Below, one piece after another: positions 1-56,139 of a stretch of 56,139 bases of DNA. Positions within the stretch are counted from its first letter, which is position 1; every line of letters starts with the position of its first letter. The DNA is from a virus (taxonomy: Duplodnaviria > Caudoviricetes), in IMG/VR virus record IMGVR_UViG_3300029986_000023, positions 1 through 56,139 of that record. The stretch is one strand, 5' to 3'. Both the position numbers and the translations under genes were made by a program. The notes beneath the pieces were generated by a model. The model was not told the DNA's origin, made no database searches, and worked only from the letters and a program-made list of their open reading frames with translations.

Positions 1-1712
1 CTGAACGAGTGCGAGGGTCATAGAAGGATTTTAGGAGTAAACAGGGATATATCCGACGGTCGCTCCACCCGTGATCACCTTGATAAATCCTTGTGGGTTA
101 GAGGTCGTTGCTCCAGACGTCCAGGTCGTCGCTGGGGTCGAGGTGGTCGCGGTGTAGGTGATATTGGCTGTCGTACTTCCAATGCCCGAAAGATCAATAC
201 CTCCCGTGAAGCGAGACAAGCCAGCCTTCACGTTGATGGCGTAGGCGTTGGTGAGCGTCGCGTTCGTGCCTGCGATGGGTGCGCCACTGATAGTTACCGT
301 TGATGCAACGGTAAAAGTTGAAGCGGCGGCGGCGGCAAACGTCGGGGCATTAAATAAAACGTAATCTGCTTCTGCAACGGTACCTGTGGCCCATGTCATC
401 GTAGACGTGACCATGTTCAGCTGTGGAGCGTTGTTTGTGGCTGTGATCGACGAGAAATTCGGTGGAGTGATGGAAAGCGAAGCTGGGGCCGAACTTGTAT
501 TGGTAGGCGTGATGGTGACTGATCCTGTGGGTGTAAGAGCAAGGTGAGTTAGCCCACCACCCGCACTCAAAATCATTCCACCGCTATTCTTGGCCCATAA
601 GTTGAGCTGACCAGAATTGCTCCAAATTTGAGCATTGTTCGTCGTAGCCGTCGAAGCACCGCCTGTGAATCCAACAGCACCACCAGCGATGTTTAGAGCA
701 TAACCCTGTGTGATGGTCGCATTCGTTCCCGCGATCGGAGCACCAGAAATAGTTACGGTCGAAGCCACAGTAAAGGTAGAAGCAGCAGCAGCAGCAAAAG
801 TAGGGGCATTAATTTGCATGTAATCAGCCTCTGCAACCGTACCTGTCGCCCACGTTTGAGTAGACGTAACGAACAAGAATTCTGGAGCGTTCACTGTGGT
901 CGTTATACCCGTATTATTTGGCGGCGTCCATGAAGAAAAAGCAACTGCCCCAGATGAAGCTGCAGACCCGTTCCATACTTGTGAGCCAGTGGCTGCAACC
1001 GCTAAAGCAATTGTAGTGTTGTTCACAATAAACTGAAGTGTCGCATTATTCGGTACAACTCGAAAGACCCCTGCACGACCGAAGGTGCCATTATTTTCAG
1101 TAAAACCAACAATTAAACCATAACTACCTGCAACACCACTATTAACTGCAAAATAGGATTCATTGGATGTACCTGAACTCGACGTACTTATTTGTAAGAC
1201 TTGCGTTACATCATTAGTGATGATTGCTTCACCCGAACCATTAGCTCGATGAAAAAAAGCCGTACATAAACCCATACTAAGGTAGCCTGTTGACACGGAG
1301 GCGTTTACTTGAAGCTGACCATCTAAACGAGTTACACCGCCTTTAGACCATAAACAATACCCATTCGTAATTGTAGCATTCGTACCAGCAATTGGAGCAC
1401 CTGAAATAGTAAACGTAGCCGCAGAAGTAATTGTCGAAGCTCCCGCGAACGCCAAAGTGGGCGCATTGAATTGAGCGTAATCGTATTCAGCCAATGCACC
1501 TGTCGCGTAGGTTTGCGTTGAGGTTGCAAGTATAAATTGCGGCGCGTTTGTCGAGAGCGTGATTGCTGTATTGGATGCTGGCGTAAACAAGGCTGTGATG
1601 GGCACGCCTGATGAAGATGCTGTTTGCGCTACGGAAAGAGTAGCCGTTGGCGAAGCTGTGCCAATCCCTAAACGAAAGTTCGTATCGTCCCAAAAGAACT
1701 TGGCATTGTCTT
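1..1712. repeat. Direct repeat with 38013..~39262 (near-identical apart from a 459-bp indel and a diverged patch at ~200-340)
   Basis: Position 1 ctgaacgagtgcgagggtcatagaagg equals 38013; stop codons at 31 and 38043 give an offset of 38,012. Confidence 0.95.
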
Positions 1713-1932
1713 GGGCAAGGACACCGGCTGGACCAACAAATAAAACAGAACCCTGTGTCGCACTAGTAATCGTGTCACCAATGGCTAGTGTTAAAGAACC
1801 AGTCACGGATAAAAGGAGCCGACCGCTTGAATCAACTTGAACTGGACACACCAAACCAGTCGTTGCATCAACCGCTAAAAGGGTTGGACGTGAGTTTGCA
1901 TCTCTTGGCGCGTTTCCATCGGGTGCTGCCAT
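31..1932 (-). CDS. Fibre/spike-like structural protein, module A allele (633 aa, three internal repeats)
   Basis: Thr/Ser/Ala/Gly-rich; DNAKFFWDDTNFRLGIGT fibre-type motif; three ...APTFAAAAASTFT..STVTISGAPIAGTNAT-like repeats; largely near-identical to 38043..39380. Confidence 0.65.
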   Translation of the reverse strand: MAAPDGNAPRDANSRPTLLAVDATTGLVCPVQVDSSGRLLLSVTGSLTLAIGDTITSATQGSVLFVGPAGVLAQDNAKFFWDDTNFRLGIGTASPTATLSVAQTASSSGVPITALFTPASNTAITLSTNAPQFILATSTQTYATGALAEYDYAQFNAPTLAFAGASTITSAATFTISGAPIAGTNATITNGYCLWSKGGVTRLDGQLQVNASVSTGYLSMGLCTAFFHRANGSGEAIITNDVTQVLQISTSSSGTSNESYFAVNSGVAGSYGLIVGFTENNGTFGRAGVFRVVPNNATLQFIVNNTTIALAVAATGSQVWNGSAASSGAVAFSSWTPPNNTGITTTVNAPEFLFVTSTQTWATGTVAEADYMQINAPTFAAAAASTFTVASTVTISGAPIAGTNATITQGYALNIAGGAVGFTGGASTATTNNAQIWSNSGQLNLWAKNSGGMILSAGGGLTHLALTPTGSVTITPTNTSSAPASLSITPPNFSSITATNNAPQLNMVTSTMTWATGTVAEADYVLFNAPTFAAAAASTFTVASTVTISGAPIAGTNATLTNAYAINVKAGLSRFTGGIDLSGIGSTTANITYTATTSTPATTWTSGATTSNPQGFIKVITGGATVGYIPVYS

Positions 1933-1937
1933 ATAGT

Positions 1938-2216
1938 TTAGCTAAATGTTCCTAAAAGATTTCCAGTCGAATTTTCAATCAAACATGCTTGCGTAGTACC
2001 GGAAGGATTTTGACCAAGCATTGATCTAACATCATTTGCATCGCTGGCTGCATTCGTTTGAGTTACCGTGATAGACCCAGAAGCCGCTACAATGCTCGCC
2101 AATAGATAGCCCGTTGCATGGTCGATTTGAAGTGGAACAACTGTACCGCTGGGATTCACTCCTTTAGCTGGTGGTACGCTGTTCGCATCGGGAGCGAAAT
2201 TATCTATTTGTGGCAT
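1938..2216 (-). CDS. Small structural protein, paralogous to the N-terminus of 31..1932
   Basis: Two copies of a (P/S)DAN..P...G.NPSGT motif; resembles APRDANSRPTLLAVDATTG..P.Q.D..G.LL at the fibre N-terminus. Confidence 0.55.
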   Translation of the reverse strand: MPQIDNFAPDANSVPPAKGVNPSGTVVPLQIDHATGYLLASIVAASGSITVTQTNAASDANDVRSMLGQNPSGTTQACLIENSTGNLLGTFS

Positions 2217-2922
2217 ATTTGGTTTTCATTAGATCGAGGGCCGATTTTAACTTCTGACGATCATCAGCGATCTTACTTTCAAGGACTTTCAATTCCTTTC
2301 GTTTCTCATCCACCAGAAGTTCTTGAGCATTCAAATCATCTCGATCGTGATCTAAGGCTTGATATTTACGTTCTAACTTCTCCTCCTCATGGGCTACTGC
2401 ATCACATCGTACTTGTGTTTCTTCTCTTAACTTTTTAGCTTCCGCTTGAGCAAGCTTTACTTTTTGCTCTGCGCTTGTCTTGAGAGAAATAGCATTGGCT
2501 TTTTCTTTCGAGGCAACCGCCAATGATGTTTTGGCCTCACGTAAGGTTTGTTCTACTTGTTCGTGAAGTTGGCTTGTTTGAAACTCCTTAGATGCGATCT
2601 CTTGCATCCTAACCTCCAACCACTCGGCTTTCGCCTTTAGACTTGTCTCAAACTCTTGTAGAGGCTCAAGGGCTTTAGATTTACGTTTCTCAAGCTCCCA
2701 AACAGTCGTTTCGAGGGCATTCTTGCTTATAGTTAGAGGTTCTATGAAGGCTTTATAATCACGTTCATTCGTGAGTTTCTTTAGTTTCAATTCATCATTG
2801 AGGCGGTTCAGATCGTTCGTCTTTTCAGCAAGAGCCTTGGTAATTTTTACCGTCTCCAAAATTACAGCGGCCTTTTGCTCGTCGTAATCTTTTTGAACTT
2901 CTTTCTTGCTGAAAAGTTGCAT
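2200..2922 (-). CDS. Coiled-coil protein (240 aa)
   Basis: Heptad-like K/E/L composition; N-terminus MQLFSKKEV resembles MKLFQKSDL of syntenic 39740..39934. Confidence 0.65.
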   Translation of the reverse strand: MQLFSKKEVQKDYDEQKAAVILETVKITKALAEKTNDLNRLNDELKLKKLTNERDYKAFIEPLTISKNALETTVWELEKRKSKALEPLQEFETSLKAKAEWLEVRMQEIASKEFQTSQLHEQVEQTLREAKTSLAVASKEKANAISLKTSAEQKVKLAQAEAKKLREETQVRCDAVAHEEEKLERKYQALDHDRDDLNAQELLVDEKRKELKVLESKIADDRQKLKSALDLMKTKYATNR

Positions 2923-2932
2923 AAGACTTCTA

Positions 2933-3553
2933 TTAAGTTGTTACGCCTTCAAACTCTTCTGACTGCTTCACCCCTACAACTGCTTTAGGTGGACGTCCCA
3001 TACGTTTCTTTGGGACCGAAACCTCATCTACAACTGGAGCCGGCAGAGCCACACCAGCTAACGATGAAGGAATCGTCAGAGCTTTCATTGTGTACTGTTC
3101 AACCAAATTGGGGTGGCGTGTGTCCCAAATTTGCGTTTTACCTTTTCGAGCCAAGCGTGGATTGCTTTTCAGACCAATATAATGAATAGCGATATCACGA
3201 GCAAAGTGTCGTGGAATACTTTCGTTCAAGAGCAAACGGCCCATCTCGTCATCATCATCGGAATCGATTGAAACGCGATAGACGCAACCTGCCTTAAACG
3301 TGTAGTTACGACTGTCCCATTTACCGGTGAAATCGTGATCCATGTAGTTATAGACCACTTGATTTTTAGGATAGACAGGACGAGCTTGTTTCTTTCCATT
3401 TACCATGGTTGTTGCAACGGTCGGTGATTGACCGCTCATTTTATTCATGGCTTCGGCAACTTGCTTTTGAATCTCGGCATTCATTTCTTGAGGTGTCATA
3501 TTATTCCCTGAATAATCTCCCGATGTTAGCAAGGTGGCAGGGATGCGGGACAT
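2933..3553 (-). CDS. Conserved head-module hypothetical protein
   Basis: NYMDHDFTGKWDSRNYTFK..RHFA aligns with NFTDRTFTWQWNSVSYTFK..EHFA in 39931..40395. Confidence 0.7.
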   Translation of the reverse strand: MSRIPATLLTSGDYSGNNMTPQEMNAEIQKQVAEAMNKMSGQSPTVATTMVNGKKQARPVYPKNQVVYNYMDHDFTGKWDSRNYTFKAGCVYRVSIDSDDDDEMGRLLLNESIPRHFARDIAIHYIGLKSNPRLARKGKTQIWDTRHPNLVEQYTMKALTIPSSLAGVALPAPVVDEVSVPKKRMGRPPKAVVGVKQSEEFEGVTT

Positions 3554-3599
3554 CCTTTTCGAGGATCAGTCTAGCCACCTTGTATTTCCTTCTTGAGAA

Positions 3600-4355
3600 C
3601 TAGCTCAAGTTGAGGAAAGCCATTTGATAATCTGTCGAGGTAAGCGTCTGCATGGCGTAGCCGACGTTTACGAGCGTGGAAGCCCATGTCTTCAGCGCAC
3701 CTGCAGTCGCACCGGAAGGAGCAAGAGCAAGACCAACGGCTGTGCTGGAATCGTTCAACACGTTGCATGGTCCTTTAACCTGCAACCAACCGTAGTAAAG
3801 TTGAGTGCCAACTACAGAAGCCGAGAGAGGATAAATACACACACCTGCTGGAATGCCAGTAGCGGTCGTTGGGGAAACAATCGTGCCCGAGAATGGGTTC
3901 AAGATCATATCGACAACCGAACTAGCTGTAATCGCAACTTGCAAAGGATCAGCCAGCGTCAAGACAACAGTGGTTGAGAGAGCAGCCGCTGGATGAGAAG
4001 CGATCTTGTAGGAGTAACCTTGACCTGGTGCCGAGATGACGGACAAGAAACCTTCCGAATATTGGTTGGCAGTAATCGCGTTCGTACCACCAAGAGCAAC
4101 GCTCACCTGTGTAGCGCCGATTGCGGCCGCGACTGGTGTCAAACCTTGTTCGGTCGTTACCTGAACAGGGCCTTGTTGAAGTTTGCCTGGAATACTCGCT
4201 ACGGTGCCATTTTGGCAATAACGAAATTCCGAACCGTTGTTTGAATACATCTTGGTGCCAAGGGCAACAAGTTCTGTAAGGTCTTGGTTGAATGGGCCGT
4301 TAGATGGCGCGGTCAACGCGGGACCTGTGAAAGCTGTAGCTGGAGCAATAGCCAT
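3600..4355 (-). CDS. Putative capsid decoration/cement protein 2 (module A)
   Basis: Downstream of the MCP; homologue of 40478..41203 (G.EF.Y.Q.G..A..PGK, GWLQVKG/GFLQTKG, VLND..T.VGL); start reassigned to MAIAPAT. Confidence 0.6.
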   Translation of the reverse strand: MAIAPATAFTGPALTAPSNGPFNQDLTELVALGTKMYSNNGSEFRYCQNGTVASIPGKLQQGPVQVTTEQGLTPVAAAIGATQVSVALGGTNAITANQYSEGFLSVISAPGQGYSYKIASHPAAALSTTVVLTLADPLQVAITASSVVDMILNPFSGTIVSPTTATGIPAGVCIYPLSASVVGTQLYYGWLQVKGPCNVLNDSSTAVGLALAPSGATAGALKTWASTLVNVGYAMQTLTSTDYQMAFLNLS

Positions 4356-4375
4356 AAAATAAACTTTTGTGTGAA

Positions 4376-4963
4376 TTAGGAAATTGGAGTAGCGAGCGTT
4401 CCTGAACCGTAGATCGTTCCCGTTACAAACCACTGGGTCGTAGAGAGGCCGATATAGGTTAAGATCGTACCGATCAAACCACCAGTGGTTGTACCGCTCA
4501 TGGTAATTGTCGAGTTTGATGTACCGTTGGCCGCGAAACCAGCCGGAGATGCTGTGGCGATGCTAAGCACCTCAACGGCACCCAAAATGAATTGGGAACC
4601 GGTCGCGAAAGTTGCGACGGAATCACCAACCGATGTGACCGAGGTGGTAACCAGGAAAGTAAACTCGAGACCTTTCGCTGCTGTCGGCAGGACGTATGCC
4701 TTTCCAGCAGCAGTATCAAACAGGAAGATTTGACCGCTTTGAGCAGCCGTGAGAGCCAAGCCGGCGGCTGAACCATTAACGGCGTATGTGCCCTGAGTGG
4801 TACCATTGATAGTTGTGCCAGCAGGAAGTTTTACGCTTGTAACAGTTGAGAAATCTACTAACGAACCAGTGCTCGTAATAGTACCGGTCGTTGTAGCATT
4901 CTTGGCCGTGTTCCAACCGTCCCACATTCCAGGAGGTAAGACGTTTTCTGTTAATAGAGACAT
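4376..4963 (-). CDS. Putative capsid decoration protein 1 (module A)
   Basis: Immediately after the MCP; LTAAQSGQ.FL.D.A.G.AY.LPT and ANGTSN.T..M.G.TTGGLIGT shared with 41223..41804. Confidence 0.6.
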   Translation of the reverse strand: MSLLTENVLPPGMWDGWNTAKNATTTGTITSTGSLVDFSTVTSVKLPAGTTINGTTQGTYAVNGSAAGLALTAAQSGQIFLFDTAAGKAYVLPTAAKGLEFTFLVTTSVTSVGDSVATFATGSQFILGAVEVLSIATASPAGFAANGTSNSTITMSGTTTGGLIGTILTYIGLSTTQWFVTGTIYGSGTLATPIS

Positions 4964-4994
4964 AGCGAAGTTGTTATGCGCCTTGCGCTATGAA

Positions 4995-6032
4995 TTAGAT
5001 ACCTGCCGAGATCGCGTTGAGCTGGGCGTTATAACGTGGGTTTTTGTAGATCATGTTACCCGCAAGCACTGTGAAACCGGACATAATCATCTGGTTTACA
5101 GGGCGTACAAATTCAGTCCAGTGGAAACCGTATTCACGAGCCAATTCTGGGTCTGGTTCACCATCCATGATATCGGCTTCGGCAAACTTCACTGGCTTAC
5201 CTTCTGGCCATTCTGGGAGATATTGAAACTCCATCGACATGTCGTTGATAAACCACATGACGTTCGCAGGAGCGATCATATCAGCCCATACTGACGCATT
5301 GTTGAATTGCAACGCTTTGGTACCACCAAGGCCCAAGTTATAGCTGCGTCCCGCGGCGTTCGTTGGGACTTCAAAACGCATGATAGGATCAAGCAACTGT
5401 TGATAATCCGTGCGCACGGCTGTCGTGGTAAAGATATGATTTACCATTTCGACACCCTGCCAGGTGCTGTCGTAGGTCGAATACATCTGGGCAAGCGTCA
5501 ATTTGTTGAGAGTCGCAGCGTTTACCGTCGCATCCAATGCTGGATATGTAGCGCGGGATTGTCCACCGATTGTTGCAACCGTGTTACCGTTATCAACACC
5601 AGCAGCAAGACCAAGCAAATCTTGACCGTTAGAACCTGCGGCATAGAATTGCGTACCAACAAGCTGCGTCAAGTCGCGTGTATCGGAACCGATCTGGCGC
5701 TCAATCAGGTTAGCCACTTCACCTTCTGTTTGGTTCAGGGCTACATCTGTGTAGTTGAGCGTGGTTGCTTGATATAAGAACGCACATTGATAGATAAGTT
5801 TGATCGTGTTATCAACTTGCGAGTTGCTCAAAAGCTGGGCGCCAACGAACGAACCTTGGTTGGTATTTTCAGTCCACTTGAAAGCATAGGCGGCTTGCGA
5901 ACCTTTCCAGGTCGAGGCTGCACCTTTAGAAATAAAGTGACCGGCGGCAATGTTTCCGACAAGGGCACCTTCAATCAAGCGTTGATAAAGGAACTCGAGT
6001 GTCGAATCTGAGACTTTGTTTGTCAAAGCCAT
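4995..6032 (-). CDS. Major capsid protein (module A, 345 aa)
   Basis: Follows portal and scaffold; LLGLAAGVD.G..VATIGG.SR.TYP motif shared with 42513..43562. Confidence 0.8.
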   Translation of the reverse strand: MALTNKVSDSTLEFLYQRLIEGALVGNIAAGHFISKGAASTWKGSQAAYAFKWTENTNQGSFVGAQLLSNSQVDNTIKLIYQCAFLYQATTLNYTDVALNQTEGEVANLIERQIGSDTRDLTQLVGTQFYAAGSNGQDLLGLAAGVDNGNTVATIGGQSRATYPALDATVNAATLNKLTLAQMYSTYDSTWQGVEMVNHIFTTTAVRTDYQQLLDPIMRFEVPTNAAGRSYNLGLGGTKALQFNNASVWADMIAPANVMWFINDMSMEFQYLPEWPEGKPVKFAEADIMDGEPDPELAREYGFHWTEFVRPVNQMIMSGFTVLAGNMIYKNPRYNAQLNAISAGI

Positions 6033-6046
6033 AAAGTTTTAATTAA

Positions 6047-6850
6047 CTATCTCTGTGATTTAAGAAATTGAGTGAGAGACATATTTCGTACTTGATCTCG
6101 TGACAGGAGATTTGGTTTTGGGGATCGTGAAACGACACCCGAACCAGCCATCTTTTTTGCCACTTCGCGGGAAGGATTTACTTTAGGTACAGTCGCTTCC
6201 TGACGCGTTGCCATGTAGATAGCGAAAGCCTTATCTAAATCGGGAATACGATGACCAAATTCGTTAGGTGATTCCGTGAGTAGATTTGCTGTTTCAATGA
6301 TCTTTTTGATCTGCTTAAAATCAGCATTCTTGTCACCATCAGTGAATTTGATACCTGTTTTTTCTTCCCATTCCTTAGTTTTTTCAGCTTGTAATTCTCG
6401 GAATTGAGACAATGATTTTTGTTCATTGGTCTTTTCTTGAATCTCTTGCTGATGTTCAGCTTCCCTAATTTCTTTAGCTTTTGATGTGATCAGCTTGTTG
6501 AGTGAATCAACAGCTTTTGGATCTTTGCCAACGAGATACTCGGCATCGGGGTCTACGGCAGTCGGCTGTGCTGCCTTAGCACTTTCTGCCAGTTTAGCCT
6601 CTAAGTCGGCGATCTTACTTTCAAGAGCTTTGAAGCGAGGGCGTTGATGGTAAGGAATCTTCTCTTTTGGTTCCACTTCTTCTTTAGTTTGTACGTTGTC
6701 CGCGACTTCTGATTCAACAACAGGTTCTGAAACCACTTCCTCGGTCTTTTCAGGCTCTGGTTGTGGTTCTTCTTTTGATGGCTTCAAGCTTTCAAAACCA
6801 TCACTTAACATGTTGTTATTTATTAAATGCGCTGCAATCGAATCTTTCAT
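6047..6850 (-). CDS. Capsid scaffolding protein (module A)
   Basis: Acidic N-terminus, IPY..RFK motif, coiled coil, directly upstream of the MCP. Confidence 0.7.
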   Translation of the reverse strand: MKDSIAAHLINNNMLSDGFESLKPSKEEPQPEPEKTEEVVSEPVVESEVADNVQTKEEVEPKEKIPYHQRPRFKALESKIADLEAKLAESAKAAQPTAVDPDAEYLVGKDPKAVDSLNKLITSKAKEIREAEHQQEIQEKTNEQKSLSQFRELQAEKTKEWEEKTGIKFTDGDKNADFKQIKKIIETANLLTESPNEFGHRIPDLDKAFAIYMATRQEATVPKVNPSREVAKKMAGSGVVSRSPKPNLLSRDQVRNMSLTQFLKSQR

Positions 6851-6937
6851 ATAATGGATTCAGCCTTTCGGCCTCATTTAATGACTTACGCAGTGCTGTT
6901 CTTTAATGTCTACAACTCGAGGAAAAGACATGATTTG

Positions 6938-7222
6938 TTACTCTGCTGGCTCCTCTTCTTCGTCTCCTTCTGAATATTCATCAGGATCACAAACTTTGAG
7001 GTCTTCCATCATTCCATCAAGGCATTCTTCCCAATCCATCTCGCCCTCTGCGTATTCTTCCAAATGTTCTTCAATGATTGATTTGACGAGCTTCAGGCCT
7101 TTTTCCCGCTGTTCACTAGACAGCATCTCTTTGACGATCTTTGAACCAGTCTTTTTCTCAACGCCCTTAAGAGCTTCTAAATAGTCTTTCCGTTCTTCGC
7201 TATCTGCGAAATAAGGTGTCAT
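6938..7222 (-). CDS. Acidic hypothetical protein
   Basis: ATG-initiated ORF filling the portal-scaffold gap. Confidence 0.6.
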   Translation of the reverse strand: MTPYFADSEERKDYLEALKGVEKKTGSKIVKEMLSSEQREKGLKLVKSIIEEHLEEYAEGEMDWEECLDGMMEDLKVCDPDEYSEGDEEEEPAE

Positions 7223-7230
7223 ATTTTAGG

Positions 7231-9120
7231 TTATTGAATAGGCGGCATTGGGACTGGTGCGGCAGGTCCTGGAGGGCCAGGTGGCGCTGGGGGTGGACCA
7301 GGCGGTGCAGCAGGTGGAGGTGGAGCTGCTGGCTGTTGTGGTGCTGCGGGCGCAGGAGCCTGTTGAGGAGCCATGGCTTGCTGTAACGCTTGCATGGCTT
7401 CTGGTGAAAGCGTCGTATACGCTTGCATATAGGCCATGGGGTTTATCTTGAGCAACATGGCTGCCCCTGCGGTTGCTTTTGGATCGGGATATTCAAGGCG
7501 TTCAAGTTCCGTAACAATGTCTATAGACCCAGAGCCAAATAGATCAACTGCTTCGTTGCGTCGCATCAAAGGATTGCGTGGGAGCATTGAGCCCTCTTCA
7601 ACAGTGATGTTCAAAATCTTAGTCAAATCAGTCTTTGCAACACCCTCTTCATTTGGCTCATCTTGATAGACGTACATCATCTGTGCCATGTAGTTGAAAA
7701 CGAAATCGACCATTTGCTCGATCTGTTCAACGACAGGAGCCGAGCGCGATGTGTCGTCTTGGTTTTTAATGATCTGACCACGCACTGATTCTTCGGAAGC
7801 AGTACCGGAAGGCGTAACACCACGAATCCCGAAGATGTTCTGAATCTCTAAACGTTTATCTTGAATATCCTCGACGATATACGCTGGTAACGCAGGAGCT
7901 TGAAATCGCTGCACAACCTTTGTAATGTCGTCACCTGGTGCCCTGATAGCTCCACCACGTTTTAACGCAGCTACGGCTTGTGTAGCTTGATCCTGATCCA
8001 TCTTGTTAGAGAATACCCAACCGTTATTTGAATCGTCGGCATTCTTGTCGATCTGTTTGGTGCGCTTGTTTAACAAGTCTTGCATCGAGATTGATTGTTC
8101 AATGAACGAAGTGAAGTCAAACGGTCGCTCACCATCATTGAAGAACCACATGAAGCTAAATGGCATTTCAGGATGAATGAAATGGTTAGCTCCAAGAACT
8201 TGTTGTGTCTCGCCAGTCTCCTCTCCATCATCACCTTTAATTGGTTCATCGTAACCATAATTCCAGTGAGGATTCTTATTCTTATCCAAGATATGCCCGC
8301 GCATCTCCCAAAAGACATATTCAGAAGTCCACCACTCACGAAAGCCTAGTACGGTACCTAATTTTCCACCGCATGCACGTGTGAGCCATTCCTTCTGCTC
8401 TGGGAAACGCACGATCAGGTTTTCACCTGAATCAAACACGTATTGACCGATGTAACGACCTGTAAACTTGCCACCATCAAACGTTCCTTTAGGATCAATA
8501 ATAAGTTTCTTTGGATCAACCTTTTCAACGTTGATTGATAAAGTCTTTTGATTCCACGTAACTTTTAGCACTCCGAGTAAGTCAATCAACCAGTCTCGCA
8601 CCGCGGACCGGACTTTAACGCGTAAATGTACTTTGTCTGATACGTCTTCAAGACTACGACCTACAGCGTCGGCTAAAGCAATACCTGTATCTGTATCATC
8701 AGTCTCTACGTTTGGTTCAGGGTCTTCACGGGCTACCATCGGTAACAACGTTTCAACGGCTTGGAAGATTGCGTTATCTACAATTCCATACCCATCACCA
8801 TTGCCTGTGTGACCATTGCTCATTCCGTAATGTTCACCTTTGTAGTATTTGAAGTTCCTTGAAGAACGCATCTTTACTTCCGCGTAGTAACCAGCAAACT
8901 CAGAAGTCCATGTAGAAGTGAGTGTTGATAACTCCTCGTCAGTCATCTCCAAACTAAGAACATCCTCGGGTGAGGTGATGCGCCCTTCTGTTTGGTTATC
9001 AATAGCTTTCTTTGTTTTGTTGAAAGGTGCGAAAAGACCACCCACTTGGTCAATAATGCCCTTAAGTGCAGGGTTGATTCCACCTGTCTCTGATCGTTTG
9101 CGACCGATGCCTGAAGCCAT
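7231..9120 (-). CDS. Portal protein (module A, P22-like, Pro-rich tail)
   Basis: After TerL; DN.IF.A.ET..P, KNPHWNY and EGSM.P..P..RRNEAV.LF motifs shared with 44529..46415. Confidence 0.85.
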   Translation of the reverse strand: MASGIGRKRSETGGINPALKGIIDQVGGLFAPFNKTKKAIDNQTEGRITSPEDVLSLEMTDEELSTLTSTWTSEFAGYYAEVKMRSSRNFKYYKGEHYGMSNGHTGNGDGYGIVDNAIFQAVETLLPMVAREDPEPNVETDDTDTGIALADAVGRSLEDVSDKVHLRVKVRSAVRDWLIDLLGVLKVTWNQKTLSINVEKVDPKKLIIDPKGTFDGGKFTGRYIGQYVFDSGENLIVRFPEQKEWLTRACGGKLGTVLGFREWWTSEYVFWEMRGHILDKNKNPHWNYGYDEPIKGDDGEETGETQQVLGANHFIHPEMPFSFMWFFNDGERPFDFTSFIEQSISMQDLLNKRTKQIDKNADDSNNGWVFSNKMDQDQATQAVAALKRGGAIRAPGDDITKVVQRFQAPALPAYIVEDIQDKRLEIQNIFGIRGVTPSGTASEESVRGQIIKNQDDTSRSAPVVEQIEQMVDFVFNYMAQMMYVYQDEPNEEGVAKTDLTKILNITVEEGSMLPRNPLMRRNEAVDLFGSGSIDIVTELERLEYPDPKATAGAAMLLKINPMAYMQAYTTLSPEAMQALQQAMAPQQAPAPAAPQQPAAPPPPAAPPGPPPAPPGPPGPAAPVPMPPIQ

Positions 9121-9122
9121 AC

Positions 9123-9157
9123 AAAAAAGGCGACAAAGAATGAATCTTGTCGCCCCT
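9123..9157 (-). terminator. Terminator-like hairpin plus U-tract directly before the portal ATG
   Basis: Minus strand GGCGACAA-N10-TTGTCGCC-TTTTTT-GT-ATG. Confidence 0.6.
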
Positions 9158-9195
9158 CTCGTTACAAGCTAGGGCTTTCTAGCTAGAATTAAACA

Positions 9196-46417: not shown

Positions 46418-46462
46418 AAAAAGGCGAGACACCAAAGAATAAATTCTTGAAGGTATCCCGCC
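46418..46462 (-). terminator. Terminator-like hairpin plus U-tract before the portal ATG
   Basis: Minus strand GGCGGGATACC..GGTGTCTCGCC-TTTTT-GT-ATG. Confidence 0.6.
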
Positions 46463-46479
46463 GCTGTATAGGTAGGGAA

Positions 46480-48683: not shown

Positions 48684-48689
48684 ATCTCA

Positions 48690-49010
48690 TCATAATAGCT
48701 CGTTACCCTCCTGTTTAGCCAGTTTCGTTGCGAATGGATCGGTGGGAGATCCGTAAACCTTCTCAAACAATCCGTCGGTGTTGCGTTGGAGTAAATCCTG
48801 CCAGTGCCAGTAACGCTGCTCGAATATCTGACGATCAACCTCGGCGGTTCGATAGCTCTGATGTGGTGTCCAGCCCTTACACTTCCAACAAGTAGCGTTG
48901 CCTGCACGAAAGAACCAGTTGTCGGGATTCATGCGTACCCGATCTGGGATGACTGGCAGTCGTCCTTGCCAGGAGTGATCTTTGTGGCAGACGTAGCAGC
49001 GGACGCGCAT
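48690..49010 (-). CDS. Zn-finger hypothetical protein
   Basis: CYVC, CWKC. Confidence 0.6.
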   Translation of the reverse strand: MRVRCYVCHKDHSWQGRLPVIPDRVRMNPDNWFFRAGNATCWKCKGWTPHQSYRTAEVDRQIFEQRYWHWQDLLQRNTDGLFEKVYGSPTDPFATKLAKQEGNELL

Positions 49011-49013
49011 AGG

Positions 49014-49307
49014 CTATTTGGTTTTCCATTCACCGTTCCAGGTTTCGTCGAAGCCGCCAATCTTTTCTGCCGAACCGATCAATTCTCTCAACGAGGCCTG
49101 GATCACTTCTTCGAGGCGTTCCACATCGTCTTGCCGCATCGTCATCGCCCAGGTGTAGATCTTCGGGATCACTGAACCAGGTTCAAACTCTGTCGGCTGC
49201 TCTTTCAACTTGCCAGCGATTTTATACACAACTGCCTCGGAATCTGGTAATGGAATTGGGCCTTCGAGGTAAATGCCTGGAACGTACATTTCGCCAAAGT
49301 GGGCCAT
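49014..49307 (-). CDS. Hypothetical protein
   Basis: Packed ATG ORF. Confidence 0.6.
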   Translation of the reverse strand: MAHFGEMYVPGIYLEGPIPLPDSEAVVYKIAGKLKEQPTEFEPGSVIPKIYTWAMTMRQDDVERLEEVIQASLRELIGSAEKIGGFDETWNGEWKTK

Positions 49308-49312
49308 AGAGA

Positions 49313-49552
49313 TCAGATGATTGATTCAAGCTCCGTATCCACTCCGTTTCGGTCGTTCTCTTCGAGCAGCTCGTCGCGCGCCAGGGTTTCGTCGTCCGTG
49401 TCGAGGATAGCCGCCTTGATGCGTGGTACTGCCTGCTGGACGCGGTAGATGATCTTACGAGAGGCTGGCAGCTTGGTTTCGATGACCAAGATAGCCAAAG
49501 AACATCCAAAGGCTATGAGAAGACCCACAATTAGGCCGAGGATGAACATCAT
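49313..49552 (-). CDS. Membrane-anchored protein
   Basis: Hydrophobic N-terminus. Confidence 0.6.
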   Translation of the reverse strand: MMFILGLIVGLLIAFGCSLAILVIETKLPASRKIIYRVQQAVPRIKAAILDTDDETLARDELLEENDRNGVDTELESII

Positions 49553-49767
49553 GTTGACTCTACTTTATCAGATTTTAGGTGCTTTGTCAATCTTTCCTTG
49601 TGGATTCTTTCTAAGACGCCAAACGGAGGCTCTAGAGATTCTACCCATTGATCTACGAGCTTCTGTTTGTTTTTTTCATCACGGACGAGATCCAGCAAGT
49701 TCATAAATTCTTTTTGGAAATTCAAACGCCTTGCCATCGCGAAGCATTTTTCCTTCAATAGTTTCAA
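49549..49767 (-). CDS. Hypothetical protein
   Basis: Stop overlaps the next start; own start uncertain. Confidence 0.4.
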   Translation of the reverse strand: MKLLKEKCFAMARRLNFQKEFMNLLDLVRDEKNKQKLVDQWVESLEPPFGVLERIHKERLTKHLKSDKVEST

Positions 49768-49936
49768 ACGTAACCGTCAATCCCCCTTTGGGAATCGGTT
49801 TCGATTTATCCCAAGAAACCTCTGAACCGCACATCTTACAGGTAGCGGTGATTGTGCTAATGCGATGCGTCGCAGTTGATTCCGTTTCGTGATGGTACGA
49901 CCAGTTGTTTTCCAAACACTTGTTACAAGCTATCAT
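49679..49936 (-). CDS. Zn-ribbon protein
   Basis: CNKC...CKMC; start reassigned to MIACNK. Confidence 0.55.
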   Translation of the reverse strand: MIACNKCLENNWSYHHETESTATHRISTITATCKMCGSEVSWDKSKPIPKGGLTVTFETIEGKMLRDGKAFEFPKRIYELAGSRP

Positions 49937-50344
49937 ATCGGGCAGTCCTGGAAGCGAAGACAAAAGCCCCCGTAAGTTAAGGGATTTAGTTATTGACGTT
50001 GATAGGGTTGTCTCTCCCATCGTCTCACCAGCCTTCTGTACTCGCCCCGCCATGGGGATTGCCTACGTCGATCAGCGTAAGGAGGAACGCTGATCACACG
50101 CTGTTATCGGTTTAGTCACTACCGCCCTGGGGTAGCTCCATCGCTCGACATCAGTTCCCGTGACTTGGCTTGGCATCCAGGGGTGGCTCACGGGATTCGC
50201 CCGACCACGTTCCCAGCCGTCAGCTCACGGGCATAAAACAAATCCCGCTTGATGTTTTGCGGGATATGTGCGAACATGATCCAGCGAACATGATCCCAAA
50301 GTACCACGGAAAAAGACTTCGGTCAAACCTCCGTGGTATTTTTT

Positions 50345-50386
50345 TGTGGATAACTAATTGACCCGTGTCCCACTCTGTGCTAAAGT
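50345..50386 (+). promoter_or_regulatory. Early promoter with upstream DnaA-box consensus (module B)
   Basis: TGTGGATAA, then TTGACC-17-TAAAGT. Confidence 0.65.
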
Positions 50387-50395
50387 AGAGGAACT

Positions 50396-50569
50396 ATGTC
50401 AATCAATTTCAATGAAGGAAAGATCGAGTGCGATGAGTGCGGAGAAAGCGAGATTTTTACTGGCTGCGTTCACTACAAGGAATTTGTCGAGGAAACGAAA
50501 CAAAATGGATGGACGGCCCAACAAGTCGAGGAAACATGGATAAATAAATGCCCGCATTGTTCACAATAA
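50396..50569 (+). CDS. 57-aa Zn-ribbon protein (not in ORF track)
   Basis: IECDECG...GW.......NKCPHC. Confidence 0.65.
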   Translation: MSINFNEGKIECDECGESEIFTGCVHYKEFVEETKQNGWTAQQVEETWINKCPHCSQ

Positions 50570-50570
50570 T

Positions 50571-50807
50571 ATGCCCCTTTCCCTGAAACAAGAAATCGTC
50601 CACGCGCCTCCCCCTCAACCAAAACCACGCTGGAAGCCGTCCAAAGAATATTGGTTTGTGAATCTGTATTGTGGTGTCGGTTGGTCAGAGGTTGGATTCG
50701 AACATGAAGAGAAGTTATTTGCTGTCGGCAACTGCTTCCCCACCCGTGAGAAGGCCGAGGCTGCCGCGCAAGCCATTAAAGAATTACTAAATAAACTCAA
50801 CCAATAA
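50571..50807 (+). CDS. Hypothetical protein
   Basis: Stand-alone version of the C-terminal domain of 18597..19355. Confidence 0.65.
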   Translation: MPLSLKQEIVHAPPPQPKPRWKPSKEYWFVNLYCGVGWSEVGFEHEEKLFAVGNCFPTREKAEAAAQAIKELLNKLNQ

Positions 50808-50879
50808 ATGTATGACAAAGACGATCACGATTGATGGAGTGGAATACGTCCGCAGGTCTGATGTTAAAGAAGTTTAATT

Positions 50880-51338
50880 GTGAATAGGGATATGCGAGAA
50901 ATACGATTTAGAGCATGGCACAAAACATGGTCGAAAGAAAAATCAGATGACATTGATGGAAAGATAAACGGTATGCAACGTGTAAGAAGCATCCATGAAA
51001 CGCTATCAGGAAATCAGGAAGTACGACTTTGGAACTGGCAGTCATTTTGTCCTATTGAAGACGTTGAACTCATGCAATTTACAGGCCTCCTCGATACGAA
51101 AGGAAAGGAATGCTTCGAGGGAGATCTAGGAAAAGATTGTTTTGGTAAACTTTGGGAGTTTCGTTGGGATGAAACTCAGGCGGGATTTCGAGTCAGACTC
51201 ATTGGTGACGAAAACCTGCCAATAGAGACAATGACGCGTCCAATCGACGGAAGTATCTCCTACAAGAAACCGAACATGGTCAAGCTGGAAGTCATCGGCA
51301 ACATCTGGGAACACAAACACTTGCTCGAAGGCAAGTAA
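50880..51338 (+). CDS. YopX-family protein
   Basis: MREIRFRAW, ELMQFTGLLD.KGKE.FEGD, EVIGNIWEH..LLE. Confidence 0.9.
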   Translation: MNRDMREIRFRAWHKTWSKEKSDDIDGKINGMQRVRSIHETLSGNQEVRLWNWQSFCPIEDVELMQFTGLLDTKGKECFEGDLGKDCFGKLWEFRWDETQAGFRVRLIGDENLPIETMTRPIDGSISYKKPNMVKLEVIGNIWEHKHLLEGK

Positions 51339-51438
51339 AAGAATGCCGCATCGCTTTGCAGGGTGCTGAACAAACGCCGCCAGCTCGACCTACCAAATCA
51401 GAACGAGGTTAAAAAATGAATTGATAAAGAAATAGGGT

Positions 51439-51927
51439 ATGCAAGAACATCAATTTCGCTTCGTACTCGAAGATAAAGAAAAACTTGTAAGGTTGTTGGC
51501 ATTTACGTGTGGATGGCAACAGGCTTGGCTATCAAGACAGCGTGAGTCATTAGAGAATCTTTATGGAAGAAAAGCTGATTTGATGGATGCGGCTGTTGAA
51601 ATGATAGATTATAGGTCTTATCCAGTTGACGATCACAGCTGTCTTGACCATTCGTTTTTACAGGCATTCTTCTCTAGGTTCCCACAAATTGAAATCTTGG
51701 TTAGACCAGACCTAACTTTCGTGGATGCGCCTGTTCCCGCGCTGATGGCCGAAAGCTACAGATACGAAGACGCTTGGAAACATCACGCGCAGGTAATGGT
51801 GTTGATGGAACCGAAAGAGCGCATCAAATATCTTTACTCATACGTCCCTGAATCTTTCAAAAAGTCCTTGAAGGAGCGTCAAGAGAAGGCGCGAGTCAGA
51901 ATCAATGAAATGGCAAAGGATTACTAG
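51439..51927 (+). CDS. Hypothetical protein
   Basis: 162-aa ATG ORF. Confidence 0.65.
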   Translation: MQEHQFRFVLEDKEKLVRLLAFTCGWQQAWLSRQRESLENLYGRKADLMDAAVEMIDYRSYPVDDHSCLDHSFLQAFFSRFPQIEILVRPDLTFVDAPVPALMAESYRYEDAWKHHAQVMVLMEPKERIKYLYSYVPESFKKSLKERQEKARVRINEMAKDY

Positions 51928-52006
51928 CCATCCCGCGCCTCTCATCTAAATCCCCGCCAGCCATCCATCCCTGGTAGCAAAGTGGTGAATGACAAAATAA
52001 TAATTT

Positions 52007-52171
52007 ATGACATTCGCAACAAAATACAAAAATCTAATGAGCTTGTGGGACATGCTCCCCCAAATTATAAAGACAATAGAGCGTCTGGAGACAGAAAATA
52101 AAGCATTAAAATTAGAACGAGATCAAGTACGAAAAGATGTAGCACGCCTGCTCGAACTCGCTAAATCTTAA
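52007..52171 (+). CDS. 54-aa coiled-coil peptide (not in ORF track)
   Basis: Contains TIERLE.EN, as in 52962..53684. Confidence 0.5.
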   Translation: MTFATKYKNLMSLWDMLPQIIKTIERLETENKALKLERDQVRKDVARLLELAKS

Positions 52172-52279
52172 TCCAACTTGTGGGATGTGATGGATGATTG
52201 AAGGATGCTGGCTCTCGTAAGAAGTCAGGTTTTAAACGGATTCATCCATTCAATCATTCCTTTCATCCCGCAACTAACT

Positions 52280-52444
52280 ATGAAACTTCAACTCCATCAA
52301 AAGACCGAGCGCATCATCGGTGCGTTGCGTATTGAAGGCCCCGTGTTCGACAAGATAGAACGCATCGCTAAGAAGCAGAAGACCAGCAACCAAACCGTCA
52401 TTCGTGCCATCTTAAATCAAGTGATTGATTCGGTGGAAGAATAA
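52280..52444 (+). CDS. Ribbon-helix-helix (CopG/Arc-like) protein
   Basis: ALRIEGPVFDKIERIAKKQKTSNQTVIRAIL. Confidence 0.7.
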   Translation: MKLQLHQKTERIIGALRIEGPVFDKIERIAKKQKTSNQTVIRAILNQVIDSVEE

Positions 52445-52445
52445 T

Positions 52446-52613
52446 ATGAACCTTAAACAAGTCCTAGGATATGGCATTTTATCAGTTCCCTTTGTCTTGC
52501 TTGTTCTTGGGTTATTTTTGACAGAGGGATGGAGAAAGGGATTGACCATTCTCCTTGTCGCCTCGACCGCGGTCGTCTGCATATTAGTTGGAACCTGGTT
52601 GCTTAATTCCTAA
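52446..52613 (+). CDS. Two-TM membrane protein
   Basis: Two hydrophobic stretches. Confidence 0.6.
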   Translation: MNLKQVLGYGILSVPFVLLVLGLFLTEGWRKGLTILLVASTAVVCILVGTWLLNS

Positions 52614-52646
52614 CCCCTTTGGCCGCCATCCTAACGAATCCTGAAT

Positions 52647-52901
52647 ATGACCATTGATGAATGTTTCCAAGCCATAGATAAAGGTGAAGGTTTGTTCTTT
52701 TATCCCGACGACATAAAAGAAATCCTCCAACGCTTCGCCCTGGAGTTCGTTACGAGTTGTTTACCAGTAGAAATGAAGATGACGTTAGTGCGTGGAACCG
52801 TTGATCCAGACGATTATTACCGCGATGAATATTACGTCGATGGATTTAACTACTGCCGCACCGCGACGTTGGAGGCGGCGCGTAAGATACTTGGTGTATG
52901 A
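52647..52901 (+). CDS. Hypothetical protein
   Basis: Mosaic homologue of 19618..19869. Confidence 0.65.
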   Translation: MTIDECFQAIDKGEGLFFYPDDIKEILQRFALEFVTSCLPVEMKMTLVRGTVDPDDYYRDEYYVDGFNYCRTATLEAARKILGV

Positions 52902-52961
52902 ACGATTCTTGGTACATTGGTTTCATGGTCGGTTTCATGACAGCTGTTGTGATCCTCGGGA

Positions 52962-53684
52962 TTGCTATTACTATCATTACGTATTGATATGCCCATCCAC
53001 GACACAATCGAAGAGTTGAAGAAACTGGAAGCGAAGGCGACGAAAGGACCTCGTGATGGCGCACGAGCAATCCTGACAAACATTAAAATTGAAGGAGTTG
53101 AGACAACCGAATTGAATCAAGATGAATTGAAGTTTATATCGGCTGTATTGGCGGCCTTCCCCTCCCTCATCGCCGAGTTAGAGCGGTTGGATCGCAGCAA
53201 CAAGGCCAAAGGCGAGTTCGCTGATAAACTCTGTGATGAACAGGAAAAAGTAAAGCGGTTGGAAGAAGAAGTCCAATACCTTCGAGCAGCATTTGTAGAG
53301 GATTCAAAAACGATTATCAACTGCAAAGGAAGCGAATTTCAAAAAACCAAAACGATAGAGCGGTTGGAGAAAGAGAATGAGAAATTGGTGAAATGGCACG
53401 AAGGAAACAAAATCCTGTCCGAAAGTTATAGAGGGCAGAACGAAGAACTCACCCGTCTCCGCGAAACGATAGAGCGGTTGGAGAAAGAGAATGAACAGAA
53501 AACGGATGCGATTTCAGTTTACGCGATTTGGAAGAAAGATTGGGAATCCCGTGAAGCTAAGTGGCAGAAATACTCAGAGAGTGTAGAGAAGATTCTCAAT
53601 GCTTTCTACGGTTCGTGGGTTTTAGGTCAGAAGTGGATAGACCAACGTGACGCCGCCCTCGCTCTTGCGCCTAAAAACGAATAG
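52962..53684 (+). CDS. Ead/Ea22-like coiled-coil protein
   Basis: LEAKATKGP..FI.A...FPSLIAELERL; TIERLEKENE x2. Confidence 0.65.
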   Translation: MLLLSLRIDMPIHDTIEELKKLEAKATKGPRDGARAILTNIKIEGVETTELNQDELKFISAVLAAFPSLIAELERLDRSNKAKGEFADKLCDEQEKVKRLEEEVQYLRAAFVEDSKTIINCKGSEFQKTKTIERLEKENEKLVKWHEGNKILSESYRGQNEELTRLRETIERLEKENEQKTDAISVYAIWKKDWESREAKWQKYSESVEKILNAFYGSWVLGQKWIDQRDAALALAPKNE

Positions 53685-53686
53685 AT

Positions 53687-53998
53687 ATGCTCGACCTCCA
53701 AAAACTGAAAGACCTCGAATCAAAGGCGACGAAAGGGAAATACGAAGTTGATGAAGATACAGTTTCCGTCAATATAAACTCGTTGATGGAAACAGGTGAT
53801 GTCTATTTTATCGCGGACGACTTCTTCACTCGTGAGGATGCCGATTTCATCGTCGCCCTCCGAAATTCATTTGGCCAGCTAGTAAGTGAGATTGAACGGT
53901 TGCAGGCGATGTGTTTCAAACAGGCGGTTGTTCTTGGCGAAATGCAAACCCAACTAAAGCAAGCCGAAGCTCTAAGATGTCCACATACGATTGGATGA
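53687..53998 (+). CDS. Ead/Ea22-like protein
   Basis: LESKATKG..DADFIVALRN..LVSEIERL. Confidence 0.65.
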   Translation: MLDLQKLKDLESKATKGKYEVDEDTVSVNINSLMETGDVYFIADDFFTREDADFIVALRNSFGQLVSEIERLQAMCFKQAVVLGEMQTQLKQAEALRCPHTIG

Positions 53999-54230
53999 TA
54001 TGCCTTGCAACCATGATGAAGTAAACCTAATCCGTTCTGGTGGTGGTGATCCAAATCCATTACCTATTTGCAAGAATTGTGGAGCTATCATTGTTCAATT
54101 AAAAAGACGCACCCCCGAAGAGATACAGGTCTACTGGATGGAACGTGAGGCGAAGTGGCAAGTGTTCGCCTCTCAATTTGAACGCACAATGTTACCTGAA
54201 GACCCACGCATGAAACTAAAACCAAACTGA
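53991..54230 (+). CDS. Hypothetical protein
   Basis: CNH..CKNCG; EREAKWQ. Confidence 0.55.
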   Translation: MDDMPCNHDEVNLIRSGGGDPNPLPICKNCGAIIVQLKRRTPEEIQVYWMEREAKWQVFASQFERTMLPEDPRMKLKPN

Positions 54231-54245
54231 TATATCGGTATCAAT

Positions 54246-54647
54246 ATGTCATCTAAAACGACACATTGCGAGAAACACGCCAAAGACAGATTTATTACAA
54301 CTTGCCTCTGTAATCCGTCTCATTGTGCCTCTTGCGCTCATCCAATGACGGGATTTGAAAAGGACTTTATGACACACTTAAAATCCGTATCACTTGAGAC
54401 AAAAGTCTCTGTGAAGATACCAAGGAACCAAAAGGAAATGGATAAAATCATTGAGAAAATTAAACATGACACATTCTGCAAGCCAGACCATAACGTTGAA
54501 TCCGACGGAATGGTTGCCTTAAAACTTTCGAGGGCAGATGTTGCTGGACTTATTGTAGCCGTTCAATACCATATAGACGAAAACGAGGACGGACGGGTCG
54601 AGCTAAAGCGTATTCGTACCCACTTGGAAAAAGCTTTGAAGTACTAA
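54246..54647 (+). CDS. Hypothetical protein with Cys/His-rich N-terminus
   Basis: T.C.KHAK....TCLC shared with the N-terminus of 20486..20833. Confidence 0.6.
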   Translation: MSSKTTHCEKHAKDRFITTCLCNPSHCASCAHPMTGFEKDFMTHLKSVSLETKVSVKIPRNQKEMDKIIEKIKHDTFCKPDHNVESDGMVALKLSRADVAGLIVAVQYHIDENEDGRVELKRIRTHLEKALKY

Positions 54648-54693
54648 TATGCTCATGTCTCACCTACTAATCTAATAAAATATCAATAAACAT

Positions 54694-55056
54694 ATGAAAT
54701 CAATCATTATCGACGGAGTAACCTACGTCCCAGAAGGAACAATTAAAGGCCAAACAGCTGTGAACACTGACGGTTTGAAATACTGCATTGTTCGTACTTA
54801 CAGTGCTGGTGTATTCGCTGGTTATCTCAAAAGTCTCGTGGGAAAAGAAGGTATCGTTTTGAATGCTCGACGTTTGTGGTACTGGGCAGGAGCCGCTTCA
54901 CTCTCTCAACTTGCTATGGAAGGTGTGAGTAAACCAAAAGAATGTAAGTTTCCTTGCGAAGTTAACGAGGTGCAATTATCAGAAGTAATTGAAGTAATCC
55001 CATGTACCGAAGAAGCTCAAAAGTCCATCGCTAAGGTGGCGAACTGGAGTGAGTAA
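54694..55056 (+). CDS. DUF6948-like protein (second copy)
   Basis: Identical to 21191..21553 except residue 2. Confidence 0.75.
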   Translation: MKSIIIDGVTYVPEGTIKGQTAVNTDGLKYCIVRTYSAGVFAGYLKSLVGKEGIVLNARRLWYWAGAASLSQLAMEGVSKPKECKFPCEVNEVQLSEVIEVIPCTEEAQKSIAKVANWSE

Positions 55057-55324
55057 TATGACCACTACAATCGCGTCAGGCAACGGCTACGGCGACGGCT
55101 ACGGAAACGGCAACGGCTACGGCTACGGAAACGGCAACGGCTACGGAAACGGCAACGGCTACGGAAACGGCGACGGCGACGGCTACGGCGACGGCTACGG
55201 AAACGGCTACGGCGACGGCAACGGCTACGGCTACGGAAACGGCAACGGCTACGGAAACGGCAACGGCGACGGCAACGGCAACGGCTACGGAAACGGAAAC
55301 GGCAACGGCAACGGCAACGGCTAG
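55049..55324 (+). CDS. Gly-X repeat protein (second copy)
   Basis: Identical to 21546..21821. Confidence 0.65.
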   Translation: MSNMTTTIASGNGYGDGYGNGNGYGYGNGNGYGNGNGYGNGDGDGYGDGYGNGYGDGNGYGYGNGNGYGNGNGDGNGNGYGNGNGNGNGNG

Positions 55325-55326
55325 GC

Positions 55327-55602
55327 TTGTATGTCTTTTTGTCTCACCTGTGGCTCTACAACACTATGAAAAAGGCATTAGTTGAACTACGAATTCAAAT
55401 GGTTATAGATGCGCCGGATTATTCAAATGATCCTGATGAAGAAAACTTAAGTGAATTCTATTTTGAACAACACAAGTGCGTAGAGGATTTGATAGATGAA
55501 TTGAAGAAGACGCAAAAGGAAGGAGTCTGTAGGTGTAACGATGCCTCTATCCATTTTCTGGGTTTTGAAGGCGGAGAAAACAAACTGGAACAACCTGAAT
55601 AA
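55327..55602 (+). CDS. Hypothetical protein (second copy)
   Basis: Identical to 21824..22099. Confidence 0.55.
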   Translation: MYVFLSHLWLYNTMKKALVELRIQMVIDAPDYSNDPDEENLSEFYFEQHKCVEDLIDELKKTQKEGVCRCNDASIHFLGFEGGENKLEQPE

Positions 55603-55994
55603 AGTAGTATAATGGATTAGCCAATGGTAGCGCGAGCTGGCGAGGTTCCGTCTTCGTCGGTTCCGTCGAGTACATAGTTTACGCGTTGAATGGTTCGATT
55701 CCGCCCTGGTGGGCAACGGGTTCGGCTGTGTACTCAACAGAACGAAAGCTCAAAAACTTGTTCATTTGATTGAGTTCATGAGGCGGCCGAGGAGTCGCTA
55801 AAAGGTGCATAATGAGACACTGGGGAGGCTCAACCAAGGCCGCAAGGCTGTATTACCAAGTGTGTCTGCCCGTCAAAGCGGGCCGTGAACTCTATTGAAT
55901 GAATATGGCTTAGTAATACGCAAGCCTGCGAGTATAAAGATCGTAGAGGATAAGATTCACGACATAATCGCTAAGCCCCACTGGGCCGAATCAT

Positions 55995-56139
55995 TTGAGT
56001 GATATGGAAGAGAAACCAAAAATAGATAACAAGAGAACGCTATCACAGAATCGAGCTTTGCATTTATACTTTACTCTCGTTGCCACGTCTTTGAATGCCG
56101 CTGGAATAGAAATCAAGGCGTCACTCCCCGACATGGAGA
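55995..56139 (+). CDS. ninB: NinB-like protein, 5' part, cut by the window end
   Basis: Identical to 22492..22636. Confidence 0.6.
   Translation, partial: MSDMEEKPKIDNKRTLSQNRALHLYFTLVATSLNAAGIEIKASLPDME

Follow-up and report, generated by a model that had tools for sequence, protein, structure and literature searches.

Variant phage genomes that share unitigs in an assembly graph can yield chimeric or over-long contigs, which are resolved by flow decomposition, as described in the Phables report (PMC10563150). For P22-like phages, the epsilon34 analysis (PMC2629481) describes little or no exchange inside the procapsid-assembly gene cluster, 'presumably' since assembly proteins that have diverged have lost the ability to interact, and places exchange mainly in receptor-binding and non-assembly genes. 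The record analyzed here, IMGVR_UViG_3300029986_000023 (IMG/VR), is a single contig of 56,139 bp annotated as a virus, 'linear' and 100% complete; the window is the whole record. It carries two diverged sets of head genes, both on the minus strand, and a tail block that occurs once. An earlier note on this DNA, made from its letters, had offered two readings: a single phage (or cointegrate) able to put either of two heads on one tail, or two co-occurring phages sharing a ~17-kb block. On the evidence given below, the contig is probably an assembler walk over two co-occurring mosaic phages, with 'two heads, one tail' as an assembly artefact, and very probably it is not one replicon.

Segment A (1-21140) was found to be followed by block S (21141-38012), by segment B (38013-54642) and then by the first 1.5 kb of S again. 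In self-comparison, 54643-56139 repeats 21141-22636 at 99.87% identity (1,497-nt overlap). The two copies differ only at a 1-nt indel (21152/54655) and a C/A substitution (21196/54699), and 21197-22636 matches the second copy at 100% (offset 33,502/33,503). Through this overlap B+S (21141-56139) closes on itself, running from S through B to the start of S, and is a complete circle of 33.5 kb. The earlier note had seen such a closable circle of ~33,503 bp, and it had seen both early operons run into the same DUF6948 block at an offset of 33,503; both observations hold, as do the identity it gave for 1..21 and 38013..38033 and its remark that B is more GC-rich. The starts of A and B match exactly over 1-116 and 118-180 (81% overall for 1-411 against 38013-38423), 716-1713 matches 38269-39266 at 96%, and GC content is 0.51-0.56 in B and 0.44-0.50 in the A head region. 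Segment A touches the B+S circle solely through common sequence at both of its ends. Features are listed in Table 1.

Table 1. Features of IMGVR_UViG_3300029986_000023, with coordinates in the window and the matches that identify them.
Feature	Position	Strand	Basis or remark
Segment A: head operon (late, -) and early genes (+)	1..21140	.	~21.1 kb, probable fragment of phage 1; both ends are blocks common with phage 2
Fibre, A allele	31..1932	-	633 amino acids (aa); A-type N-terminus and 153-aa internal insertion
Major capsid protein (MCP) A	4995..6032	-	phrog_9953, E 1.4e-22
Portal A	7231..9120	-	phrog_156
TerL A	9365..10984	-	phrog_675, E 1.2e-91; Pfam GpA_ATPase
GroEL	12132..13718	-	A only; Pfam Cpn60_TCP1, 5.8e-61; 528 aa
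GroES	13720..14019	-	A only; Pfam Cpn10, 6.1e-13; 99 aa
P22 gp3-type small terminase	14053..14481	-	A only; Pfam GP3_package, 3.4e-19
RecT (A early recombination gene)	17116..17835	+	A only; Pfam RecT, 2.9e-26
PD-(D/E)XK nuclease, weak match	17807..18595	+	A early; PDDEXK_1 below its cut-off
Node 1: end of early operon, DUF6948 gene, six-residue-repeat gene, NinG/HNH gene	21153..23257	+	Pfam; contig breaks
Six-residue-repeat gene, 91 aa	21546..21821		13.6 copies of an 18-nt unit
18-nt repeat	21576..21820	+	first copy
NinG/HNH gene	22854..23264	+	HNH-type
S-main: tail/late block, once in contig	23258..37836	-	14,579 nt; the alternative path replaces exactly this stretch
HNH gene	25973..26467	+	HNH-type; AP2 domain
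Tail adaptor, single copy	35014..35913	-	Pfam SU10_adaptor PF24175, 6.8e-11, 43.4 bits (cut-off 27)
74-aa gene	37809..38033
Node 2: most of the 74-aa gene and fibre 3' end	37837..38216	-	contig breaks 37837/37866
Segment B: phage 2 head operon and early genes	38013..54642	.	closes with 21141-38012 into a 33.5-kb circle
Fibre, B allele	38043..39380	-	445 aa; 90.7% to A allele over 377 aa
HNH endonuclease directly downstream of MCP B	41845..42468	-	phrog_20891, 4.7e-29; Pfam HNH_3
MCP B	42513..43562	-	phrog_9953, 8.8e-49
Portal B	44529..46415	-	phrog_156
TerL B	46679..48355	-	phrog_675, 1.5e-60; Pfam GpA_ATPase
Second pass, start of node 1	54643..56139	+	contig ends inside node 1, at the equivalent of 22636; 100% from 54700
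18-nt repeat	55079..55323	+	second copy

The joints of the contig were compared with independent assemblies. At least 92% of sampled words of 33013-43012 are held by 24 peat-metagenome runs, all as Logan contigs, and the stretch 18500-38499 was compared with the Logan contigs of four of these runs (X1, X4, X11 and X22). In all four, contigs break at 21153/21182, 23172/23201 and 37837/37866, so that the junctions of the window lie in common sequence and coincide with branch points of independent contigs. Node 1 is entered by the early genes of both A (A-early) and B (B-early) and is left by two paths at 23257; node 2 is entered by the single tail block (S-main) and by an alternative path, and is left by A-type and B-type fibre sequences. 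What these contigs show as common is 21153-23257 (2.1 kb), 37837-38216 (0.38 kb) and most of the fibre gene.

The alternative path runs between nodes 1 and 2 in four of four runs and bypasses the tail block. In X4 and in X11 one contig joins 23257 to 37837, omitting 14,579 nt; loose ends of at least 255 nt were found behind 23257 in X1 and before 37837 in X22, and the linked variants 23202G/23225A occur in all four runs. The path exits at the NinG/HNH stop codon, starts with a hairpin followed by T's, and rejoins the window sequence within the 74-aa gene, 28 nt from its end. Its alleles were recovered as proteins as well: the alternative NinG allele (P0040; 135 aa, Q117E, with another C-terminus) was counted on 15 contigs and the window allele on 24, and for the 74-aa gene the counts were 37 contigs with an alternative 79-aa form (P0081) and 34 with the window form. 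The loose end before 37837 translates into ...FCDANTIIVPLTTP, the C-terminus of P0081. This path is both real and common. Loose-end 30-mers gave no match in viral or genome contig collections, and the window 32-mer before 23257 gave none in metagenome contigs, a search that would miss the alternative allele, which differs there. Allele linkage within node 2 (the 37945-37973 cluster and 38129) varies between runs and phases neither A nor B.

Depths of the parts were taken as mean k-mer depths of Logan contigs, not of raw reads. For X11, values were 53, 53.3 and 44 for A-early, 51 for the alternative path, 36.1 for S-main (31364-37866) and 79.8-84.5 for node 1. A patch common to A and B (20710-20856) has a depth of 89.1 in this run which, with A-early at ~53, places B-early at ~36; S-main equals this inferred value and lies below A-early (44-53). 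For X4, values were 17.3-22.4 for A-early, 22.3 for the alternative path, 23-25.5 for S-main, 47.3 for node 1 and 22.2 for the A-type fibre end (the A-type contig at node 2, a joint 38213->38344). For X1, they were 4.6-4.7 for A-early, 4.27 for the alternative path, 5.9-8.6 for S-main and 8.02 for node 1. The depth of the alternative path follows A-early in these three runs. Node 1 has the summed depth of both phages in X4 and X11; in every run, S-main accounts for just part of the flow through it. Unequal depth or a matching alternative continuation was thus seen in X11 and X4. The simplest decomposition is A with the alternative path and B with S-main. That A pairs with the alternative path and not with S-main is accordingly fairly likely, by depth parsimony drawn mainly from one run and not from read phasing.

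Under the favored reading, two or more podophage-like genomes, present together and related as mosaics, would form one component of a short-read assembly graph. The true genomes would be A + node 1 + alternative path + node 2 and B + node 1 + S-main + node 2. After A, the assembler would have taken the wrong exit from node 1 and then made one lap of phage 2, the walk stopping on re-entry into node 1. The unseen alternative path would then supply the A head with a separate adaptor and tail module, so that one adaptor need not fit two portals. The leftover biology is ordinary mosaicism: a fibre gene, one small late gene and 2 kb of early sequence were recently exchanged.

A single replicon (phage, cointegrate or tandem prophage), built either as A-S-B-S or as a circle A-node 1-S-node 2-B-node 1-alternative path-node 2, is very improbable. 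The contig is one sequence rated 100% complete, and in X4 all four parts have similar depths (20-27), as such a replicon would give. However, in A-S-B-S the depth of S-main should be double that of A, and ~1.2x was seen in X4 and 0.7x in X11. Any single replicon also needs A equal to B, and X11 gave 53 against ~36. The depth comparison that the earlier note had proposed speaks against one genome: the A:B ratio changes between runs, being ~1.5 in X11 (53:36) and ~0.75 in X4 (~20:27). No tRNA or host flank lies in the record, and no integrase was found among the proteins scanned, which covered part of the open reading frames.

Relatives also tell against a two-headed phage. A portal profile search of IMG/VR gave at least 539 relatives, the longest among the best 80 being 44,306 bp. 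Five complete relatives (CheckV 100%, two with terminal repeats) span 37.1-44.3 kb with one portal match in each of the five, against 56.1 kb, two portals, two TerL and two MCP genes in the window record. For 37 clusters of portal homologues the longest contig was 39,223 bp, and for adaptor homologues (120 listed out of 311) it was 40,837 bp. A 56-kb genome with two head sets has no parallel among its relatives. Scans of viral contigs with portal A, portal B, a 914-aa protein of S and P0081 returned no relatives, nor did those of metagenome contigs with a 159-aa S protein or of genome contigs with MCP A; these absences carry little weight.

The other half of the earlier note, two co-occurring phages, is supported, and its corollary of a common ~17-kb S block with one adaptor on two portals is probably wrong. 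Two real circles, A+S (38.0 kb) and B+S (33.5 kb), would share the whole 17-kb S and one adaptor between portals 31% identical, with the alternative path belonging to further variants; this is unlikely. It needs S-main to be as deep as node 1, and the values seen were 25.5 against 47.3 in X4 and 36.1 against 80-89 in X11, where S-main also falls below A-early (53). The alternative path, moreover, matches A-early in abundance in three runs, and its alleles occur as often as those of the window. Within the P22-like set as treated in PMC2629481, exchange in receptor-binding and accessory genes fits the set of sequences common to the two phages here, and the little exchange in the portal-to-gp10 cluster speaks against heads having been swapped while the adaptor stayed identical. 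On the other side, the contig itself joins A-early to S-main, the X4 depths (A ~20, S 23-25) are compatible with two such circles, and the similarities of TerL, portal and adaptor across relatives are those of module reshuffling.

Contigs from elsewhere also place an A-type fibre beside S-main proteins, as the two circles would predict. A 28,570-bp ENA contig carries the 633-aa fibre (P0097) with the window-type 74-aa allele (P0086) and the exact S adaptor (P0023), and a 34,391-bp contig carries a fibre with the A-type N-terminus (P0092) and a variant of the 914-aa S-main protein (P0032). Fibre combinations in short-read contigs are unreliable, however, since both phages hold a near-identical core of ~1 kb, and the two contigs may be further chimeras across this core or real recombinants. 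That these peats hold viable recombinants in which the A head, like the B head, is built on the S-main adaptor and tail is unlikely. If the window and the 28.6-kb and 34.4-kb contigs were real A+S recombinants, they would show an adaptor tolerating very divergent portals.

These two contigs weigh against pairing A with the alternative path, and so do several further observations. The alternative path is known by its ends, and a search for an adaptor on it gave no homologue with a longest contig of 51,580 bp among the 120 listed out of 311. The N-domain of the S adaptor is 30-44% identical to the adaptors of B-like relatives and 33% to that of the A-like locus L083, a value inside the B-like range, and is thus no closer to B-like adaptors. 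GC content at third codon positions is 0.43 in A, 0.48 in S and 0.59 in B, so that composition does not tie S-main to B; codon distances are 0.57 for S-A and 0.77 for S-B, and tetranucleotide correlations 0.71 and 0.78, respectively. Since two paths enter and two leave, the depth totals also suit mixtures of the four combinations, and the two populations are well resolved in X11 alone (51-53 against 36, compared with 22 against 25 in X4). X22 fits poorly (A-type fibre end 11.9, A-early ~6, alternative path 4.46). Depth covers 18500-38499 with the head genes outside, and the link of A-early to the A head rests on the contig. X11 has no cover over 23836-31172, with ~69% of the run read, and this hole was not used as evidence.

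The 51,580-bp contig, a protein-collection record, carries the alternative 79-aa allele together with a fibre of B-type N-terminus. It may be the mirror-image walk B-alternative path-A. The protein collection holds fibre forms of 633, 585, 480, 445, 432 and 414 aa, and other assemblies contain all four combinations of N-terminus type and insertion. The 153-aa insertion is internal, optional and repeat-like.

Of the 11 gene pairs that the earlier note had claimed between the two head modules, homology detectable by BLASTP was found for five: fibre (90.7%), TerL (38%), portal (31.5%), MCP (27.6%) and a small protein of 80/68 aa (29%, E 3.6e-4). A sixth pair (2933-3553 and 39931-40395) is tied only through common matches in related loci. 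BLASTP gave no similarity between A and B for the scaffold, 'TerS' and 'decoration' pairs. Both copies of TerL, portal and MCP match the same PHROG in each case, and the same Pfam family is found in both TerLs. Portal A scored 20.8 bits for Pfam P22_portal (cut-off 26.1) and portal B 24.7 bits for SU10_portal (cut-off 30); with these sub-cut-off scores the portals are not assigned to either family. Many portal homologues bear the precomputed label PF16510. Two gene names of the earlier note were replaced. The gene after MCP B, taken for a decoration protein, encodes an HNH endonuclease, and the 'TerS' of A said to adjoin TerL is displaced by the Pfam small terminase, which is parted from TerL by GroES and GroEL. 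These phage chaperonin genes lie between the gp3-type small terminase and TerL in A only; GroEL homologues were also seen in both relatives from GenBank and in 15 of the other loci compared.

Most of the 80 relatives (L003-L082) resemble B in their portal and MCP, whereas a clear likeness to A was found for L003-L006 and L008. An adaptor match was found in 12 of the 80 loci, all B-like, and L083 is the only A-like locus that reaches the adaptor. TerL A is often as near as TerL B, or nearer, to B-like relatives (L014: 50% against 42%). The terminase history therefore differs from that of portal and MCP in related loci.

That the adaptor is present once, as first noted, was confirmed by its SU10-type domain, above cut-off, and by the lack of a paralogue in the window in all-versus-all BLASTP. 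Family matches in S comprise DUF6948, NinG/HNH, a second HNH gene and the adaptor; the other S proteins gave none, and the labels 'nozzle', 'ejection' and 'lysis' of the earlier note are without family support in the protein scans. A contig of depth 14.4 in X4 joins 26204->31300, omitting 5,095 nt with the 578-aa and 914-aa genes, and further loose ends recur in several runs at 26512, 27942, 28683, 32654 and 34151. More than two tail-block variants are therefore present in these peats.

Two further observations concern the nodes and their surroundings. The 18-nt unit of the 91-aa gene, GGCAACGGCTACGGAAAC, encodes a six-residue peptide repeat, and contig depth over it is inflated to 341-497 in X4 and X11; the repeat probably tangles assembly graphs. 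Three HNH-type genes are present: the stop codon of NinG/HNH is the exact divergence point of the two late paths, the AP2-domain gene lies inside the tail block, and the third is inserted after MCP B. These HNH endonucleases might promote the module exchange found here.

A public record rated 100% complete and 'linear' thus probably combines a whole genome with about half of a second one. Read literally, it would give an inflated genome size, duplicated hallmarks and a false story of two heads on one tail. A cheap and reusable check for over-long viral contigs asks whether the end repeats an internal stretch and how hallmark counts compare with those of complete relatives; it further looks for branch points and a depth-matched alternative path in independent contigs.

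By nucleotide search, A, S and B gave no match among cultured and GenBank phages. The GenBank relatives found by protein are the TM7 phage DolZOral124_53_65 (MG269973.1, 38,840 bp) and Caudoviricetes sp. cthkR962 (MW202566.1, 38,956 bp; spring water). Each is a circle that encodes a single portal, MCP and adaptor, together with a GroEL. Their likeness to the window is 23-27% for the portal, 23-35% for the MCP, 26-29% for the adaptor and 28-33% for GroEL; unlike the window, they are circles of ~39 kb with one head module and no nucleotide similarity to it, and they are distant relatives. The P22-like phages, as covered in PMC2629481, resemble this locus in their syntenic late operons with divergent orthologous heads, coat proteins there being 14-28% identical and the MCPs here 27.6%. 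That set consists of cultured enterobacterial phages, whereas the portals here fall below the P22_portal and SU10_portal cut-offs and family membership is not shown. The components described in the Phables report are mostly of variants with >95% average nucleotide identity, whereas likeness here is limited to three short blocks and the head genes are ~30% identical. As in those components, common blocks, branch points at module borders, an over-long contig, duplicated hallmarks and a depth that splits into flows were all found in this one.

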